NCBI GenBank assembly: GCA_963663235.2
Contig: CAXXNO010000004.1
Location: 608,001-672,000, forward strand
Source: Dehalococcoidia bacterium
Lineage (GTDB): Bacteria > Chloroflexota > Dehalococcoidia > Bin125
Direction: 5' to 3'
Length of the DNA: 64,000 bases
The notes below the pieces were generated by a model. That model was not told where the DNA came from. It made no database searches and worked only from the letters and a program-made list of their open reading frames with translations. The translations under genes were made by a program, and so were the position numbers. Each line of letters starts with the position of its first letter. Within the stretch, counting starts at the first letter, position 1. This document shows, piece by piece, positions 51,548 through 58,546 of the stretch.

Positions 51548-52492
51548 TTGGCTCGGTTTCTACCACCAAGCCTCACCGAGCTTCCGAACCCGCAGACCGA
51601 TCTGCCCCGCATTGCCAAGGACCGCGGTCTGACCGCAAGTATCGACGAAGCCGTACGACAAGTTCCGACTGCTCACCAGCTATGGCTACGTGACGCCCGC
51701 GAAATGAACCTTCCTTCAGACAGCGTTCATCTGGTCGTCACGTCACCCCCCTACTGGACCCTCAAGAAGTATCGAGACTGCGATGGCCAGCTCGGGGCCA
51801 TCGCCGACTATGAAGGCTTCCTATCGCAGTTAGACGCGATTTGGAGTCGGTGCTTTGATGCCCTCGTGCCGGGGGGGCGGCTAATCTGCGTCGTCGGAGA
51901 TGTTTGTTTATCGAGGAGAAAGAACGCTGGCAGGCACGTAGTAGTTCCTCTGCATTCATCGATCCAAGAGCGCTGCCGCCACATCGGTTACGACAATTTG
52001 GCTCCGATCGTCTGGCACAAAATCTCAAACGCTGCGTACGAGGTTGAGAACGGTTCCACGTTCCTGGGTAAGCCGTATGAGCCAAACGCAGTGATAAAGA
52101 ACGATATCGAGTTCATCCTGATGGAGCGGAAGCCAGGTTCTTATCGCAGCCCGACCTTGGAAGCCCGGATCTTAAGCTTGATATCTGTAGAAAATCATCA
52201 CAAGTGGTTCAGACAAATCTGGTCTGGCCTGACAGGCGCATCGACTCACCAGCATCCCGCGCCATTTCCTCTTGAGCTGGCGGAGCGGCTGGTTAGGATG
52301 TTTAGTTTCGTCGGTGATACTGTCCTCGACCCGTTCCTCGGCACCGCGACATCGAGTTTGGCTGCCGCCCGGTGGGGACGAAACAGCATTGGCTTCGAAG
52401 TAGACCCGCACTACTTTGAACTCGGCCATCAAAGAATGGCCCGAGAGACGCGGAATCTCTTCGGCAATGCAGCAATTGACGCGCTCCCGTAG
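51548..52492 (+). CDS. Type II DNA methyltransferase (beta class, SPPY, likely m4C)
   Basis: VHLVVTSPPYW, I.W.K, HPAPFP.EL..RLV.MFS..GD.VLDPFLGT.TS. Visibly lower GC than the flanks. Frame open upstream to ATA 51488 behind GGAGGAG. Confidence 0.9.
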   Translation: MARFLPPSLTELPNPQTDLPRIAKDRGLTASIDEAVRQVPTAHQLWLRDAREMNLPSDSVHLVVTSPPYWTLKKYRDCDGQLGAIADYEGFLSQLDAIWSRCFDALVPGGRLICVVGDVCLSRRKNAGRHVVVPLHSSIQERCRHIGYDNLAPIVWHKISNAAYEVENGSTFLGKPYEPNAVIKNDIEFILMERKPGSYRSPTLEARILSLISVENHHKWFRQIWSGLTGASTHQHPAPFPLELAERLVRMFSFVGDTVLDPFLGTATSSLAAARWGRNSIGFEVDPHYFELGHQRMARETRNLFGNAAIDALP

Positions 52493-52500
52493 CGAGTCCC

Positions 52501-53229
52501 ATGCCGGCCGCGACACTTGAGAAGCGGTTGTCCAAGGCAGTAAAGACGTTCTGGACGACTCGCAACCGCCAGATTGACGCGCAAGAAAAAAGACGCGGTA
52601 ACGGGGACCAAGGGTCCAGGGGCGCTGTCACTGGAGGTGCTCAACTCGACGGAGTGGCTGATCTCCTGAGTGAGCTTCTGGTTGAGAGCGGCATCGATCC
52701 CGCGACGATTCATAGGAAAAAGGACGTCGCTCTACCCGGATTCTTCCGCCCTTCAAAGGGGTGGGATCTGGTTGTTGTAATCGATGGCGTTCTTCTCGCG
52801 TCGATTGAGGTCAAGTCACAGGTCGGATCGTTTGGAAACAACTACAACAATCGGACGGAAGAAGCGCTCGGGAGCTCCACTGACCTGCGGACGGCTTATC
52901 GCGAAGGCGCTTTCGCCCCCTCGGCGAGGCCCTGGCTCGGCTACCTCATGTTGCTTGAGGAGGCTCCGAAATCGCTGGCGCCAGTTCGAGTTCAAGAGCC
53001 ACATTTCCCGGTGCGGGAAGAGTTTCGAGGAGCCTCTTACGCGAGGAGGTACGAACTCTTCTGTCGGAAGCTCGTGCGAGAACGCCTCTATGACGCCGCG
53101 TGCTTCATTCTCTCCGATCAAGTCGGAGGATCAAATGGTAAGTACCGCGAGCCCTCTTCCGAACTAGGCTTCCGGAACTTTGTTACCTCTTTAACCGCAC
53201 GGGCAATCACCCACCTAGGCTCGCCGTAA
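52501..53229 (+). CDS. XhoI/PaeR7I family type II restriction endonuclease
   Basis: R..VTGG..LDG, LPGFFRP.K.WD.V, IEVKSQ.GSFGNN.NNR.EEA.G...D...A.REG, P.LGY...LE, Y..RY...C.KL..E.LY. Confidence 0.85.
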   Translation: MPAATLEKRLSKAVKTFWTTRNRQIDAQEKRRGNGDQGSRGAVTGGAQLDGVADLLSELLVESGIDPATIHRKKDVALPGFFRPSKGWDLVVVIDGVLLASIEVKSQVGSFGNNYNNRTEEALGSSTDLRTAYREGAFAPSARPWLGYLMLLEEAPKSLAPVRVQEPHFPVREEFRGASYARRYELFCRKLVRERLYDAACFILSDQVGGSNGKYREPSSELGFRNFVTSLTARAITHLGSP

Positions 53230-53295
53230 CGCCGCGCGGGCGGCTAACTCCGTTCCGATTGGTCCAGGTCGCAAAGCTAGCCCTCGCGCCTGTCC

Positions 53296-54594
53296 CTACT
53301 TCACCCCCACCGCCGACTCCACCTGCGGGATCGCCTGGAACCCGGTCGGCAGCGCCAGCACCGTCGCCGGCGCGCCGGTTTGCCGCTCCATCTCCGACGC
53401 CAGCTCCGCCACCGTCGCCGACACGTCCTCGCTCTTCCGCAAGTGCGCCGCCTTCGTCGTCGCCTCGTCCAGCGTCGAGTAGAGGTATACCTCCGCCTTC
53501 AACTGCGCCATCGCCTGGCACTGGATCCCCCACTGGTCGATGCGGTGGAAGTCCGGCTCCAGCAGCAGGGCAATCAGCGCCTCGGGACTCTCCCGCGATG
53601 CCAGGAACTCGGCGTAGTCTTCGTTCCCGACCCCTTCCCGGCACTCCGACGCCAGCACGATCGCCCCGCCCCGCCGCACCGCCCGCGCCGCCGCCGCCAT
53701 CCCCTTGATCGACTGGTACACGTTCAGGTCGGCCGGGTAGCCCCCGTTCGTCGTCACCACGATGTCGTACTCGTGCGGCACCGGCCGCAGCGCCGCCCGG
53801 TCCACCTCGGCCATCGCCGCGTCGTGCGCCGCCGCCAGCTCGCCGCAGAAGAAGCCCGTCACCCGACGGTCGGCGCTCAGCGTCACGTTGCACAGGAACG
53901 TCGGCTCCGACGCCAGCGCCACCGACCGCATCTCCTCGAAGATCGGGTTCCCTGCCCCCACGCAGAACGTCGCCTTGGGGTCCAGCAGGTTCGCCGCCGT
54001 GTGGTTGCGCATGATGTTGTGCGCCGCTGCGATGCCGGGCAGCACCCCTTTGCCGCCGCCGCTGTAGCCGGCGAAGATGTGCGGCTCCACGAACCCCGTC
54101 ACGATGCGCACGCTGGCCCGCATGTAGTGCGAGTTCAGGTAGATGCCGCCCCGGCGCTCTCCCGGGTAGCGCTGCAGGAACGTGAGCGAATCGGGATCCT
54201 GTGAGTCGTGCACCGCGACTCGGTAGTCCCGCACGATCTCCGGCCCCAGCAATCGCTCCAACTCGGGCCGCGACATCTGCCGGTGCAGCCCCGTCCCCAC
54301 GACGAGCGTGATCCGCTCCCGCGGCACGCCTCGACCCTCCACCACCCGCAGCAGCTCCGGCGCCGTCAGGCGGTTCGGCGCCGGCCGGGTGAGGTCGCTG
54401 AACACGATCGCGACGTGGTCGTCCGGCCCCACCAACTCGGCCAGCGGCGGCGACCCGATCGGCCCCGCCAGCGCCTCCCGCAGCGCCGCCGGCGGGGCCG
54501 CCAGCGGCGCCACGTCCTTCGGCATGATGACGTCCGTCTGCGCCGGCAGATCGACGTCCAGCCCGTTCTCGCCGTAGGACAGGTGCACCTTCAT
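53296..54594 (-). CDS. larA: Nickel-pincer lactate racemase family (LarA-like)
   Basis: L.YG, AL..PIG..PL, SD.TRP.P, GTGLHR, HD, G.VEPH.FAG.SGG.K..LPG, GYP.D.N.YQ..K, EC.EG.G. Confidence 0.9.
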   Translation of the reverse strand: MKVHLSYGENGLDVDLPAQTDVIMPKDVAPLAAPPAALREALAGPIGSPPLAELVGPDDHVAIVFSDLTRPAPNRLTAPELLRVVEGRGVPRERITLVVGTGLHRQMSRPELERLLGPEIVRDYRVAVHDSQDPDSLTFLQRYPGERRGGIYLNSHYMRASVRIVTGFVEPHIFAGYSGGGKGVLPGIAAAHNIMRNHTAANLLDPKATFCVGAGNPIFEEMRSVALASEPTFLCNVTLSADRRVTGFFCGELAAAHDAAMAEVDRAALRPVPHEYDIVVTTNGGYPADLNVYQSIKGMAAAARAVRRGGAIVLASECREGVGNEDYAEFLASRESPEALIALLLEPDFHRIDQWGIQCQAMAQLKAEVYLYSTLDEATTKAAHLRKSEDVSATVAELASEMERQTGAPATVLALPTGFQAIPQVESAVGVK

Positions 54595-54678
54595 GCGACC
54601 GAGCCTCGCACGCCCCGCAACGCGCCGTCAACGCGGACACCGCGGCGACGCACCGGCCCCTCCTCTACACTTCTTTTG

Positions 54679-54843
54679 ATGGCCGGCGAACCGTTCGACG
54701 ACCAAACCCGCAGCGAGCGCCGCGCCGACAAGCGACGCAACAAGCGCCGCGCCCTCCAGATGCACGGCGCTTCCCTCCGCCGCATCTACCCCAACGCCGT
54801 CCTCAAGCGCCTCCGCCGAGCCAAGCGCCCACGCTCCCGCTAG
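54679..54843 (+). CDS. Small very basic hypothetical protein (54 aa)
   Basis: TACACT 7 nt before ATG. MAGEPFDDQTRSERRADKRRNKRRALQMHGASLRRIYPNAVLKRLRRAKRPRSR. Stop overlaps the convergent OsmC stop (CTAG). Confidence 0.6.
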   Translation: MAGEPFDDQTRSERRADKRRNKRRALQMHGASLRRIYPNAVLKRLRRAKRPRSR

Positions 54844-55313
54844 TGCGTCCTAATCTCCGCCGACGACGTGATCCGGATCGCCTCCTTTACGCTCTCGTGC
54901 GCCGGGCACCCCCGCGCATGCACCTCCACCGCCCGCTGCGCCGCCTCCCGCGTCCCCGCGCTGATGTCGATGTGGTAGCTCACGTGGATCGCGGTGATCC
55001 GGATCGGCGCGCCCTTGCCCGCCGGCCCCTCGATCGTCCCCTCCACGTCGGCCGTGTAGGTGTCCGGGTCGAACTCAACGTCGCGTACTCGCAGCGCACG
55101 GGCGAGCGTCCCGTACATTCACCCCGCCACCGCCGCGACGATGTGGTCCAGCGTCGCCGCTACCGGCGGACCCTCGGGCGCACCGTAGTACTCGCGTAGC
55201 GCGCCCTGCACCCCGTACGGCACCGGCTCCGGCACGTCGCCCAGGTAGGCGTTGCGCACGCCGTCCTTGAGCACCAGCCGCGACTTGGACATGTAGGTGA
55301 ACGTGTCCGCCAT
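54840..55313 (-). CDS. OsmC-like protein with in-frame UGA at the catalytic Cys position (predicted selenoprotein, 157 aa)
   Basis: ORFs 55119..55469 and 54840..55118 are in the same frame, joined by one TGA (55121-55119): LDHIVAAVAG-[TGA]-MYGTL...V.G.IE...IT.I.V.Y.I...H..GCP...S. RBS GAGAGGAG 7 nt before ATG 55313. Confidence 0.8.
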
Positions 55314-55315
55314 GA

Positions 55316-56380
55316 TCATGCTCCTCTCTCGCCCTGCTGAGCCCGCGCGTAGCTGGGGTCCTGCTGGCTCCGCTGCCCCCGTGTCCACTCCGGCGGGATG
55401 GGATACTCCCCGCTGATCGGGTCGACCCGGCTCCAGTCGTAGACGATCACCCGGTCCCCGATCCGCCACGCCTCCCCGTCCCGACGCTCCATCCGGTCCA
55501 GGTGCCGGCAGCCCACCACCTGCTCCGTCCGCCCGCTCGTCCGCGACGGCATCCGGTGATAGGCCACGCAGTACGCCTCGCTGTAGCCCACGTCGCCCTG
55601 CACTTCCACCAGCACCTGCCCGATGTAGTGCATCGTGCCCAGCATCGTGGGCAGTCCCCCGAACGCGTACTCGATGAAGCCGTCGCGGTCGCCTTGGTAC
55701 ATGCCGTGGTCGTCGGTCGCGTTGGCGTGGTAGCAGGACCGCGCCAGCTCTCTGTCCAGCCGGTCGACGGCGCGACAGTAGCGCTGCGCCACCTCAGCAA
55801 TCGCTTGCTTGTCCAGCGCCTCCTGCAGGCGGCCCTCCAGCGTGTCGGGTGGCGACCAGTCGGCGCGAAAGGCGGGCCGCTTGTACACGGCGTCCTGCCG
55901 GTCTCGCCGTCCCGTCACGTACTTCCCGTGGAAGTCCCACTGCCGCCCAACCGGCGCGATGGTGCTCCACTCCCACACCGTCCGCCGCTGCGCGATCTTC
56001 CACTCCCCCGCTCGGCGCTCCAGGCGGTCGATCCACCGCACCCCGGCCACGCCATCCTCGTCCTCGCCACTCTCGGTTACCGCCCGCTGGTACGCGGTCA
56101 CCTGCGCCTCGCTCTGCGCCCTGTCGCCGTCCAGGTCGATCAGCACGTTGGTGATGGTGTGCATGCCCAGGCTGGTCGGGGCCAGCGCCGCTTGCAGCCA
56201 GGGCACGAACCGCTCGACCGGCCCGTTGAACGCGCCGTGCTCCAGCTTCGCGCCGCCGTGGAAGCAGGACCGCGCCAGCTCCCAGTCGAAGCGATCCACG
56301 CCGCGGGCGAAGCGCGCGAGCACGTCGGTGATCGCTTGCTTGTCCAGCAGCGCCCGCGCCTGCCGCTCGTCGATCGGCAC
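55316..56380 (-). CDS. Tandem double SnoaL/NTF2-like domain protein
   Basis: Two repeats of LD..AI.....R..R..DR.D..L.RSC.H..A..HG...H......V.GD.A.SE....A...R..DR.ERR.G.W.I..R. Confidence 0.88.
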   Translation of the reverse strand: MPIDERQARALLDKQAITDVLARFARGVDRFDWELARSCFHGGAKLEHGAFNGPVERFVPWLQAALAPTSLGMHTITNVLIDLDGDRAQSEAQVTAYQRAVTESGEDEDGVAGVRWIDRLERRAGEWKIAQRRTVWEWSTIAPVGRQWDFHGKYVTGRRDRQDAVYKRPAFRADWSPPDTLEGRLQEALDKQAIAEVAQRYCRAVDRLDRELARSCYHANATDDHGMYQGDRDGFIEYAFGGLPTMLGTMHYIGQVLVEVQGDVGYSEAYCVAYHRMPSRTSGRTEQVVGCRHLDRMERRDGEAWRIGDRVIVYDWSRVDPISGEYPIPPEWTRGQRSQQDPSYARAQQGERGA

Positions 56381-56404
56381 GCTGCCCCCCGTTTGGCCCT
56401 GCGC

Positions 56405-57466
56405 CTAACGGTCCGCGCCGGACCGTGCGTAGGCCAGGTCGTCCTTGTTGCGCTGTCCCCGCATCCACTCGGGGGACAGTTCCAGTTCCTGGCTGATCGG
56501 GTCGATCCGGCTCCACTCGTACGCCACCATCCGGTCCCCGAGCTTCCACTCCGCGCCGTCGCGACGCTCGAAGCGGTCCACGTACCGGCAGGCCACCAAC
56601 TGCTCGGTCTTTCCCGACTTCCGCGACGGCATCCGGTGGTAGGCCACGCAGTATGCCTCGCTGTAGGCTACGTCGCCCTGCACGTCCACCAACCGATTGC
56701 CGATGTAGTGCATGGTGCCCAACATCGTCGTCAGGCCGTCCCCGGCGTGCTGCACGAAGCCGTCTCGGTCGCCCTGGTAGGTGCCGTGGTCGTCGGTGGC
56801 GTCTGGGTGGTAGCAGGAGCGCACCAGCTCCATGTCGATCCGGTCCACGCCGCGGCAGTAACGCTGGACCACCTCGGCGATGGCTTTTTTGTCCAGCAGC
56901 TCCTGCAGCCGTCCCTCGATCGTGGTCGGGGGCGCCCAGTCCGATGCGAAGCGCGGCCGATCGTATACCGGGTCCTGCTTGTCCCGACGCCCCTTCCGGT
57001 AGTTCTCGTTGAAGTTCCACTGCCGCCCCACCGGCGTCGCGGTGCTCCACTCCCACACCACCCGCCGATGCCCGATCCGCCACGTCCCCTCCCGCCGCTC
57101 GAACCGGTCGATCCACCGCGCCCCCACCACAAAGTCCCGGTCCGGCTCCCCTTCGCCCTTGGGCGGCAGCCGGTGATAGGCGGTGACGTACGTCTCGCTC
57201 TGCGCCCTGTCGCCGTCCAGGTCGATCAGCGGGTTCGTGATGAGGTGCTGCGAGAGCGTCATCTTCCCTAGCTCCTCGCGCACCCAGGGGATGAACGCCT
57301 CGATCGGGCCGGTGAACACGCCGTGCTCGTCCATCGCCCCCTCGTGGAAGCAGGACCGCACCAGGTCCCAGTCGAAGCGATCGATCCCGCGCGCGTAGCG
57401 CGCGACCACCTCGTAGATCGCCTGCTTGTCCAGCAGCGCCTGCGCCCGCTCGGCGTCGATGCTCAT
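56405..57466 (-). CDS. Tandem double SnoaL/NTF2-like domain protein (paralog of neighbour)
   Basis: Same two-domain layout, colinear and highly similar to 55316..56380. GGGAGG RBS. Confidence 0.88.
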   Translation of the reverse strand: MSIDAERAQALLDKQAIYEVVARYARGIDRFDWDLVRSCFHEGAMDEHGVFTGPIEAFIPWVREELGKMTLSQHLITNPLIDLDGDRAQSETYVTAYHRLPPKGEGEPDRDFVVGARWIDRFERREGTWRIGHRRVVWEWSTATPVGRQWNFNENYRKGRRDKQDPVYDRPRFASDWAPPTTIEGRLQELLDKKAIAEVVQRYCRGVDRIDMELVRSCYHPDATDDHGTYQGDRDGFVQHAGDGLTTMLGTMHYIGNRLVDVQGDVAYSEAYCVAYHRMPSRKSGKTEQLVACRYVDRFERRDGAEWKLGDRMVAYEWSRIDPISQELELSPEWMRGQRNKDDLAYARSGADR

Positions 57467-57553
57467 CGCGGTCCCTCCCGCCTCAACCTACCGTGGTCCC
57501 GCGCATTCTACCCGCTTCGGCGCGGCCACCGCCCGCCCCGCTACCATCCCTCC

Positions 57554-58546
57554 GTGCCGCCTCGACTCCTCCTCGCCCCGCTTCTCGCCTTGGCCTTCGC
57601 CGCCGCCTGCGCCGGCTCCGATTCCGCCTCCGGCCCGGCTGCCGCTCCGATCGACCCCGCGGCCGCCCGCGCCGCCCGCCTCGCCACGGTCGATTCCTGG
57701 CTCTACCAGCTCCAGGGCCCCGTCGACGGCGACGGCCTGCTCGACCTCGTCGCTCTGGACGCCCACGGCGCCGGCCTGCTCGTGGTGGACCACTCGCGCG
57801 ACGGTGGCGGCGCGGGCGCCTTCAGCCGGGAAGAGGTGGCGGCCGCGCAGGCCGACGGCACCATCGTCCTCGCCTACCTCAGCATCGGCGAGGCCGAGGC
57901 CGGCCGCTTCTACTGGGACGACGCCTGGGTCCGCGACGGCGCCCCCACCGACGCCGCCCCGCCCTGGCTCGCCGGCGCCAACCCGGACTTCCCCGACAAC
58001 TACTTGGTCGAGTTCTGGGACCCCGGCTGGCAGGAGATCATCCTCGGCCGGGACGCCTACCTCGACCGCATCCTTGCCGCGGGCTTCGACGGCGTGTACC
58101 TGGACCGGGTCGACGCCTGGGAGGACTGGTGGGACTTTAACAGCGGCCTGCCCCCGATCGAGGCCGAGGATATGGCCCTCTTCGTCGAGGCGATCGCCCG
58201 GACCGCCCGCGAGGCGTTCGGCCGGCCGGACTTCCTGATCTTCGTGCAGAACGCGCCCGACATCCTGGAGGCGGTGGATGCGGATTCATACCTGGCGGCG
58301 CTGGACGGCCTGGGCGTGGAGGACACCTTCTACTTCGGCGACGCCGATGAGGACAATCCCCTCGACGTCCAGGAACGGACCCTTGAGTACATCGGCCGCT
58401 TTCGCGAGGCTGGCAAGCTCATCCTCGCAGTCGACTATCTCCTCGATGCGGCCAAGCAGGCCGACTTCGTGGCCCGCGCCCGCGCCCAGGGCTTCCTGCC
58501 GTTCGTCGCGCCGCGCGCTCTGGACCGGGTCATCCCCCAGCCCTGA
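57554..58546 (+). CDS. GH114 / TM1410-MJ1477-like glycoside hydrolase lipoprotein
   Basis: Lipobox AAAC, W.YQLQ, LAYLSIGEAE..R.YW, NPD.P.NY.V.FW...WQ, GFDGVYLD.VD, QNA, G.ED. Confidence 0.85.
   Translation: MPPRLLLAPLLALAFAAACAGSDSASGPAAAPIDPAAARAARLATVDSWLYQLQGPVDGDGLLDLVALDAHGAGLLVVDHSRDGGGAGAFSREEVAAAQADGTIVLAYLSIGEAEAGRFYWDDAWVRDGAPTDAAPPWLAGANPDFPDNYLVEFWDPGWQEIILGRDAYLDRILAAGFDGVYLDRVDAWEDWWDFNSGLPPIEAEDMALFVEAIARTAREAFGRPDFLIFVQNAPDILEAVDADSYLAALDGLGVEDTFYFGDADEDNPLDVQERTLEYIGRFREAGKLILAVDYLLDAAKQADFVARARAQGFLPFVAPRALDRVIPQP

Follow-up and report, generated by a model that had tools for sequence, protein, structure and literature searches.

INTRODUCTION

Enzymes of the OsmC/Ohr group act on organic hydroperoxides, and LinA and scytalone dehydratase, which share an NTF2-like fold, are trimers; Asp35 of BaiE and Arg129 of LinA are further active-site residues in enzymes of this fold. 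This study concerns a locus at which genes of these two groups stand side by side, namely, sno1, sno2, and osmC, three consecutive genes on the minus strand of a 64,000-nucleotide (nt) stretch of DNA from a Dehalococcoidia bacterium (positions 608,001 to 672,000 of contig CAXXNO010000004.1, assembly GCA_963663235.2; the whole stretch is referred to here as the window). The two sno genes encode paralogous proteins with SnoaL_4 domains, and osmC encodes an OsmC/Ohr-family protein whose reading frame contains a UGA codon that is read here as selenocysteine (Sec). On balance, we favor the view that the locus is a cluster of three genes, specific to this lineage, in which putative LinA/BaiE-like enzymes are combined with an autonomous Sec peroxidase and that it represents a local gene order, not a conserved pathway.

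The closest described systems are known separately. The catalytic dyad of LinA is His73-Asp25 (PMC6929183), and BaiE is a trimer that uses His83 and Tyr30 (PMC12065433, PMC13101464). An OsmC-like selenoprotein family was first reported from the Sargasso Sea by Zhang, Fomenko, and Gladyshev in 2005 (PMC1088965) and is also covered in reviews from 2022 and 2026 (PMC9312934, PMC13188914); these three sources describe it as a predicted thiol-dependent peroxidase or redox protein.

RESULTS

Organization of the sno1-sno2-osmC locus

The features of the locus on which the argument depends are as follows.

56405 to 57466, minus strand: sno1, encoding a two-domain SnoaL_4/NTF2-like protein of 353 amino acids (aa), ATG start (open reading frame [ORF] and Pfam)
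55316 to 56380, minus strand: sno2, encoding a paralogous two-domain SnoaL_4 protein of 354 aa, GTG start (ORF and Pfam)
54840 to 55313, minus strand: osmC, encoding a Sec-containing OsmC/Ohr-family protein of 157 aa from MADTF (translation with TGA read as U)
55119 to 55121, minus strand: in-frame UGA of osmC, read as Sec, at the position of the first (peroxidatic-position) Cys of the family (translation and homolog alignment)

Each Sno protein contains two stretches that match the Pfam family SnoaL_4 (PF13577), with scores of 177.8 bits for sno1 and 145.6 bits for sno2 against a cutoff of 24, and the two proteins are 66% identical. The stop codon of sno1 (56405 to 56407) is followed after a gap of 24 nt by the start of sno2 (56380), and the osmC ATG (55313 to 55311) lies 2 nt past the sno2 stop (55316 to 55318). 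An additional possible osmC ATG (55319 to 55317) overlaps the sno2 stop as ATGA; in the relative L020, the osmC start is the counterpart of the second ATG. When TGA is translated as U, osmC yields one OsmC-family protein of 157 to 160 aa in which the U lies in the motif VAG-U-MYGT and the second Cys lies in GCPAHES. The read-through protein matched PF02566 with 45.1 bits (cutoff, 27.5), and the genome scan gave 36.8 bits with 1 TGA inside the match. An earlier note on this DNA, made from its letters, had described four SnoaL domains in two fused paralogs that lie 24 nt apart, and a seleno-OsmC gene that begins 2 nt after the second of them; these observations, with the operon-like spacing, are upheld here, and the in-frame TGA of osmC is at the first redox-Cys position.

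The Sno proteins resemble acid-base enzymes of the NTF2-like fold

The AlphaFold model of sno1 (pLDDT, 95.0; pTM, 0.91) consists of two cone-shaped, NTF2-like alpha+beta domains. Foldseek searches with the single domains returned 4gb5, LinA, BaiE, scytalone dehydratase, and gallate decarboxylase with TMt values of 0.65 to 0.83. A profile search reached BaiE (E value, 0.0011) and LinA (E value, 0.009), and a sequence search of sno1 against the PDB found 4gb5 only. Across 41 two-domain relatives, residues D29, R30, H74, E91, R117, and R134 of domain 1 and residues D208, R209, H253, E270, and R294 of domain 2 are invariant, which bears out the conserved Asp-Arg and His residues that the earlier note had named (D29-R30, H74, D208-R209, and H253). 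All four domains of the two proteins keep the signature Tyr/Asp-Arg...His...Glu...Arg.

From the fold and the conserved residues, the Sno proteins are most likely lyase- or dehydratase-type enzymes that act on a hydrophobic substrate, and each of the four domains would carry out cofactor-free acid-base catalysis. One point weighs against this assignment: the putative equivalence of D29/H74 to D25/H73 of LinA is drawn from membership in the family and from the Asp/His spacing, which for both D29/H74 and D208/H253 resembles that of LinA (D25/H73) and of BaiE (Y30/H83). A noncatalytic role as ligand-binding or scaffolding NTF2-like proteins, comparable to that of the beta subunits of ring-hydroxylating oxygenases, would account for a weak match to Ring_hydroxyl_B (PF00866) that is seen in sno2 only (28.1 bits against a cutoff of 27) and for scores of 23 to 34 bits with the NCBIfam HcaF-like models, which are far under their cutoff of 145. 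Many NTF2-like proteins are indeed noncatalytic, according to PMC13101464, which cites Eberhardt 2013; the Eberhardt paper (PMC3924330) makes no mention of tandem arrangements, trimers, or SnoaL_4. However, no gene for a Rieske alpha subunit was seen among the ORFs between 49.3 and 63 kb of the window, the invariance of D-R, H, E, and R in both domains is more in keeping with an active site than with a scaffold, and enzymes with an Asp-His dyad are among the best fold matches; we therefore consider a nonenzymatic role unlikely and retain the assignment of the Sno proteins as putative enzymes.

The two genes appear to be tandem duplicates of a gene in which two SnoaL_4 domains had been fused. 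sno1 is the ortholog-like copy, being 64 to 66% identical to the single gene of L020 and of L153, a metagenome contig, and sno2, which is 57 to 58% identical to the same two genes, is a lineage-specific, faster-evolving duplicate. The sister-genus genomes and L153 have one two-domain sno gene only.

The SnoaL-OsmC linkage is confined to two sister genera

The earlier note had gone further and had proposed that the fused SnoaL genes and the seleno-OsmC gene form a dedicated transformation or detoxification module, for which it had suggested a neighborhood analysis of OsmC homologs. Among 80 genome loci that carry sno1 relatives, a seleno-OsmC gene was found within 6 kb only at L020, a Chloroflexota metagenome-assembled genome whose Sno protein is 65% identical to sno1, and none was found near the SnoaL relatives at the 79 other genome loci or at 80 metagenome loci. 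At nearly all of these 79 loci, both halves of sno1 mapped to one stretch of the length of a single domain (L098 may be longer); such single-domain relatives occur in Acidimicrobiia, Embleya/Yinghuangia, sphingomonads, and others. Clustering of the neighbors at the 80 SnoaL loci gave generic catabolic families, with short-chain dehydrogenases/reductases (SDRs) at 34 of them, and the other neighbors of the single-domain relatives include amidohydrolases, zinc-dependent alcohol dehydrogenases, luciferase-like monooxygenases, a cytochrome P450, and a Rieske oxygenase.

When 60 relatives were scanned, the two-domain gene was found only in the sister genus g222, where all three genomes (L020 being one of them) have it with osmC directly downstream; the other 33 genomes of the family have no two-domain sno gene. 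The linkage is therefore not unique to the genome under study, as it recurs in three genomes of the sister genus, but it is confined to four genomes from two sister genera.

The view from osmC was similar. At the 18 further seleno-OsmC loci found in the phylum, no SnoaL homolog was present within approximately 8 kb or up to the contig end, and the SnoaL-free loci include one in a genome of the same family whose OsmC is 67% identical. The neighbors vary among 17 other seleno-OsmC loci, where they include aminotransferase, TetR, HAD, DoxX, and glyoxalase genes, and none recurs beyond close kin. ORF clustering across 19 seleno-OsmC loci revealed no conserved neighbor, with one cluster of eight loci being an antisense shadow ORF, and a Pfam search of 46 neighboring ORFs found no recurring partner.

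Comparison of the three related lineages shows how the adjacency is built. The window and L020 share a syntenic block with the order gcvPA-gcvPB-sno-osmC-larA-acad-flavin reductase, in which acad denotes the acyl-CoA dehydrogenase gene. In L153, a two-domain gene that is 66% identical to sno1 lies in the order gcvPB-sno-larA-like-acyl-CoA dehydrogenase-flavin reductase, with surroundings that are 71 to 77% identical but without osmC. Since L153 keeps the block without osmC and L020 keeps it with osmC, the adjacency falls inside a syntenic block that is shared by kin and in which osmC is a variable insert; the larA-like gene is the sno neighbor that is kept in all three lineages.

A dedicated module, in which the Sno proteins as lyases or hydrolases and the Sec-OsmC as a reductase would act in sequence on oxidized hydrophobic compounds, such as hydroperoxides and epoxides of lipids or terpenoids, has several attractions. 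The gaps are short (24 nt between the sno genes, and 2 nt or an overlap as ATGA before osmC), the order from sno to osmC is the same in all three sister-genus genomes, and a convergent gene closes the unit directly after osmC. In addition, the known action of the OsmC/Ohr enzymes on organic hydroperoxides would suit such a substrate, and epoxide hydrolases are known among NTF2-like proteins, two of which, Lsd19 and MonB, were matched by fold. Nevertheless, L153 has the sno gene and its surrounding block and lacks osmC, seleno-OsmC genes and SnoaL homologs do not occur together at the other loci on either side of the comparison, the company of seleno-OsmC varies by locus, and the single-domain relatives adjoin SDRs and other catabolic enzymes, not peroxidases. 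OsmC and SnoaL were also not found together in the literature that was searched. The dedicated module was therefore not borne out, and we regard it as improbable.

We instead favor a three-gene cluster that reflects local gene order. Since it is almost always UGA encoded and has unrelated neighbors in other genomes, the seleno-OsmC looks like a stand-alone antioxidant enzyme; it would work autonomously and be cotranscribed with sno genes only in this lineage. Two considerations weigh against this account. Because the two genera are related to each other, as are the three genomes of the sister genus, there are at most two independent observations; furthermore, the tight spacing has been kept over 64 to 82% protein identity between the two genera, which is compatible with a functional coupling that is specific to this lineage.

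Domain number among SnoaL_4 relatives and a predicted three-fold ring

Relatives of the Sno proteins occur as one-, two-, and three-domain chains. Among the 120 best-listed sno relatives, which fall into a length class of 194 to 618 aa, 53 reach 475 aa or more, and the domain signature occurs three times in 41 of these 53. Of the relatives listed from outside the clade, the nearest three are triple-domain proteins with 57 to 59% identity. Three-domain SnoaL_4 proteins of approximately 500 to 525 aa (P0104 to P0106 and L154 to L160) are common in metagenomes; judged by eye, the middle domain of P0104 looks like an internal duplication, with a core like that of domain 3 and a tail like that of domain 1.

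Each of the four genomes with a two-domain gene also has one single-domain paralog elsewhere, with 44 to 46% identity. A complex prediction for sno1 with the single-domain paralog of its own genome scored 0.63 (best control, 0.00). In the calibration, 116 of 157 solved complexes and 2 of 215 mismatched pairs attained this mark, counts that hold only roughly here because the prediction was run with custom alignments. The runs agreed in at least 92% of contacts, the pLDDT of the partner was at least 88, and the paralog was placed against homologous surfaces of both sno1 domains, as in a three-fold ring. On the strength of these models, the Sno domains probably pack as pseudo-threefold rings in which the third place is taken by another SnoaL_4 domain, and the single-domain paralog of the genome is one candidate that perhaps fills it. 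Two points count against this arrangement: the score may reflect likeness to the solved homotrimers of LinA and BaiE, and any homologous domain, for example, one from another Sno chain, could take the third place.

It can be envisioned that sno1 and sno2 both form "2+1" hetero-pseudo-trimers with the single-domain paralog that are coexpressed with the Sec-OsmC, as parts of a lineage-specific operon for the repair of oxidized lipids or terpenoids that handles hydrophobic compounds derived from hydroperoxides or epoxides; we consider this combined proposal highly speculative.

In the genome of the window, the single-domain SnoaL_4 paralog (C4:808430-808933) is followed after 40 nt by two hydantoinase_B/oxoprolinase genes, an acetyl-CoA hydrolase/transferase gene, and a cyclase gene, and it is divergent from a gene for a TlpA-like thiol:disulfide oxidoreductase that has a CxxC motif and a membrane anchor. 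The sister genus has the same arrangement (L150, 1501 to 2004; L238, 6931 to 7434). The TlpA-like gene was considered as a second link between SnoaL proteins and redox enzymes and was set aside as synteny among kin.

The osmC UGA and the Sec-dominant OsmC subfamily

The AlphaFold model of the osmC product spans the UGA with a pLDDT of 91.1. Its best Foldseek match was 2onf (TMq, 0.77; TMt, 0.85), followed by Ohr and OsmC structures, and the best matches were all of the OsmC/Ohr type; a sequence search of the PDB gave no match at E values up to 0.1. By family analogy, the product would be a Sec-containing thiol peroxidase of the OsmC/Ohr type in which Sec65 would attack the hydroperoxide and the resulting selenenic acid would be resolved by Cys136 of the CP motif.

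Several observations indicate that the UGA is very probably decoded as Sec. The source genome (2.75 Mb in 14 contigs, 92% complete) encodes selB (359.1 bits; cutoff, 242.25), selA (551.8 bits, above its cutoff), and a tRNA-Sec (70.9 bits) with the anticodon tca. It also has selD (C4:103776-104699, L018) above the cutoff, with one in-frame TGA of its own, and this gene likely encodes a Sec-containing selenophosphate synthetase. When 400 further genomes of the phylum were searched in six frames, osmC homologs turned up in 18, all of which have an in-frame TGA: 17 have exactly one, and one locus, which looks damaged, has three. The TGA of the homologs aligns with the U of the window protein even where identity is as low as 33%, the sequence on either side of it being conserved, and does so in L020, L138, and L140 as well. 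Among 101 matches in the protein collection, 34 are C-terminal fragments that begin at the Met following the Sec site, and 53 are N-terminal fragments that end immediately before it; of the remaining 14, the Sec column has Trp in 2, Cys in 3 (P0003, P0092, and P0095), Ser in 1, and Arg in 1, and 7 are of other kinds. Residues D56, U65 (Sec or Cys), G68, and T69 are invariant in the alignment, and R20 and C136 are nearly so. The reading of the TGA as a true stop, which would leave a pseudogene or two small genes and no selenoprotein, would explain why gene callers split osmC in two and why the Sec insertion sequence (SECIS) in the window is not clear-cut, but it is very improbable in view of the TGA in the same column of all 18 phylum homologs with both flanks conserved, the homologs with Cys at that column, the complete Sec machinery of the genome, and the single OsmC fold that is predicted across the codon.

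We conclude from sequence comparison that the osmC of the window is a member of a distinct, uncurated, Sec-dominant subfamily of the known seleno-OsmC kind, as it scored 27.9 bits with the NCBIfam model NF041052 (OsmC_like_Se), below the cutoff of 95, and has the motif U-(M/L)-x-G-T, which sets it apart from the described motif. A scan of the genome with NF041052 gave no locus above the cutoff. Two further OsmC-family genes in the genome (C12:335784-336122 and C9:63221-63598) are of the Cys type and have no internal stop.

Candidate SECIS hairpins

Two hairpin positions downstream of the UGA are of interest.

55087 to 55107, minus strand: candidate SECIS hairpin shared by the clade (GCUCGC...GCGAGU), which begins 11 nt past the UGA
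55083 to 55099, minus strand: position of the hairpin conserved in the family (columns 23 to 39 after the U of UGA)

The clade hairpin has six pairs and -7.5 kcal/mol in the window and seven pairs and -11.5 kcal/mol in L020. The family hairpin, which is GC rich and lies 19 nt past the UGA, was assessed by an explicit count of pairs in place of RNAalifold, which with 22 post-UGA stretches returned only a 4-pair helix in another register. By this count, 90.9% of 154 cells are paired, a value that 1 of 500 shuffles reached, and registers slid from this position gave 20 to 64%; one pair shows a G-C to C-G exchange in 4 sequences. In the window, the family hairpin is weak (6 of 7 pairs, 2 of them G-U, with one mismatch; -5.3 kcal/mol), and most of the unpaired cells fall in the clade of the window. 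Neither the family hairpin nor the clade hairpin is the minimum-free-energy fold of the window sequence, and with three alternative hairpins, the SECIS there is ambiguous, which counts against its assignment; a SECIS in the window itself is nonetheless plausible.

Transcription unit and flanking genes

The following features flank the cluster.

54679 to 54843, plus strand: small, very basic ORF (54 aa) that is convergent with osmC and shares 3 nt with the osmC stop
53296 to 54594, minus strand: larA-like gene (context), assigned from Pfam Lar_N and LarA_C and from synteny

From the gaps of 24 and 2 nt and the convergent gene after osmC, it is probable that sno1, sno2, and osmC are cotranscribed in this genome. 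The sno1/sno2 junction is spanned by RNA contigs from two metatranscriptome libraries, which come from two different studies (X18, 56187 to 56582; X19, 56235 to 56475); this is a weak hint that these two genes are cotranscribed. Against this use of the contigs, they cannot establish a single transcript and may include DNA; moreover, X18, X19, and X20 cover only positions 56187 to 56672, with none on osmC, and so are uninformative on osmC expression. A scan of positions 53000 to 58000 for sigma-70 promoters and intrinsic terminators gave 0 promoters and no minus-strand terminator after osmC, a result that is uninformative for this phylum.

Since the small ORF runs toward osmC from the opposite strand and extends over its stop codon, the larA-like gene probably belongs to a different transcription unit, which leaves no more than the three genes sno1, sno2, and osmC for an operon. 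The stretch of 245 nt that separates osmC from the larA-like gene is conserved in L020 and, between sno and larA, in L153, and both have homologs of the small ORF on the same relative strand (L020, 7561 to 7731, minus; L153, approximately 2400 to 2560, minus). The family consists of Arg/Lys-rich proteins of 54 to 56 aa with the pattern …TRGERR…HGASL.(R/K)IY..A(I/V)LKR…, divergent from larA; it has no Pfam or NCBIfam match and may comprise nucleic-acid-binding or regulatory proteins.

The LarA-like protein is a homolog of nickel-pincer-type racemases or epimerases. Its best NCBIfam match is Ni_dep_LarA, with 396.5 bits against a cutoff of 460, and it is below the cutoff of every LarA-homolog equivalog model. 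Farther along (51548 to 53229, plus strand), two ORFs that may form a restriction-modification pair, the first of 314 aa and DNA methyltransferase-like and the next of 242 aa, lie between the acyl-CoA dehydrogenase and larA-like genes. The pair looks inserted, since in L020 and L153 the acyl-CoA dehydrogenase and larA-like genes are direct neighbors. An N6_N4 methylase gene is found elsewhere in the block of L153.

DISCUSSION

In this study, we have examined a three-gene cluster whose adjacency recurs among close kin, and two practical consequences follow. The annotation of osmC is corrected, as gene calling otherwise breaks this intact selenoprotein gene into two fragments, and the SnoaL-OsmC operon is a local arrangement that should not be propagated as a pathway. 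If the predicted three-fold ring is true, the SnoaL_4 family would also provide a clear case of evolution from oligomer to fusion among NTF2-like enzymes. With respect to the triple-domain relatives, the proposed 2+1 hetero-pseudo-trimer would be a split version of the single-chain form.

The Sno proteins may be compared with LinA, BaiE, and scytalone dehydratase, with which the individual domains share their fold (in the TMt range given above, with a root mean square deviation [rmsd] of 2.3 to 4.5 Å) and weak profile links. Unlike these proteins, to which they are approximately 20% identical, the Sno proteins have two domains fused in each chain and are encoded by a duplicated gene; the sno locus also lacks the lin or bai gene context of LinA and BaiE. 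Lsd19 and MonBI-MonBII are likewise a tandem or heterodimer of two NTF2-like catalytic domains and were found by Foldseek with E values of 6e-9 to 1e-7; however, their fit to the whole chain is poor (TM score, 0.26 to 0.36; rmsd, 17 to 18 Å), and therefore, the domain arrangement differs. The Sno proteins do not share the two-domain architecture of Lsd19-type fused epoxide hydrolases (whole-chain TM score, 0.29 to 0.36), and the sno locus has no polyether or polyketide synthase context.

The osmC product is like the described OsmC-like selenoprotein family in combining the OsmC fold with a UGA-encoded Sec at the position of the redox-active Cys. It differs in its motif: the published description assigns that family to COG1765 with the motif UxxT, whereas the subfamily of the window has U-(M/L)-x-G-T. 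The curated NCBIfam model does not reach this subfamily.

The comparison also extends to the Ohr/OsmC peroxidases, represented by Escherichia coli OsmC (1qwi/1nye), Xylella Ohr (1zb9), and Chromobacterium violaceum OhrB (6eb4), which share the fold of the osmC product (TMq, 0.57 to 0.77) at an identity of only 10 to 19%. The two redox residues are at matching places, the first on the long helix and the second in a C-terminal CP motif, and upstream of them the subfamily of the window has an almost invariant Arg as well as an acidic residue that does not vary. The acidic residue is Asp in the osmC of the window, at a place where Ohr presumably has Glu, and the first Cys of these peroxidases is replaced in osmC by Sec.

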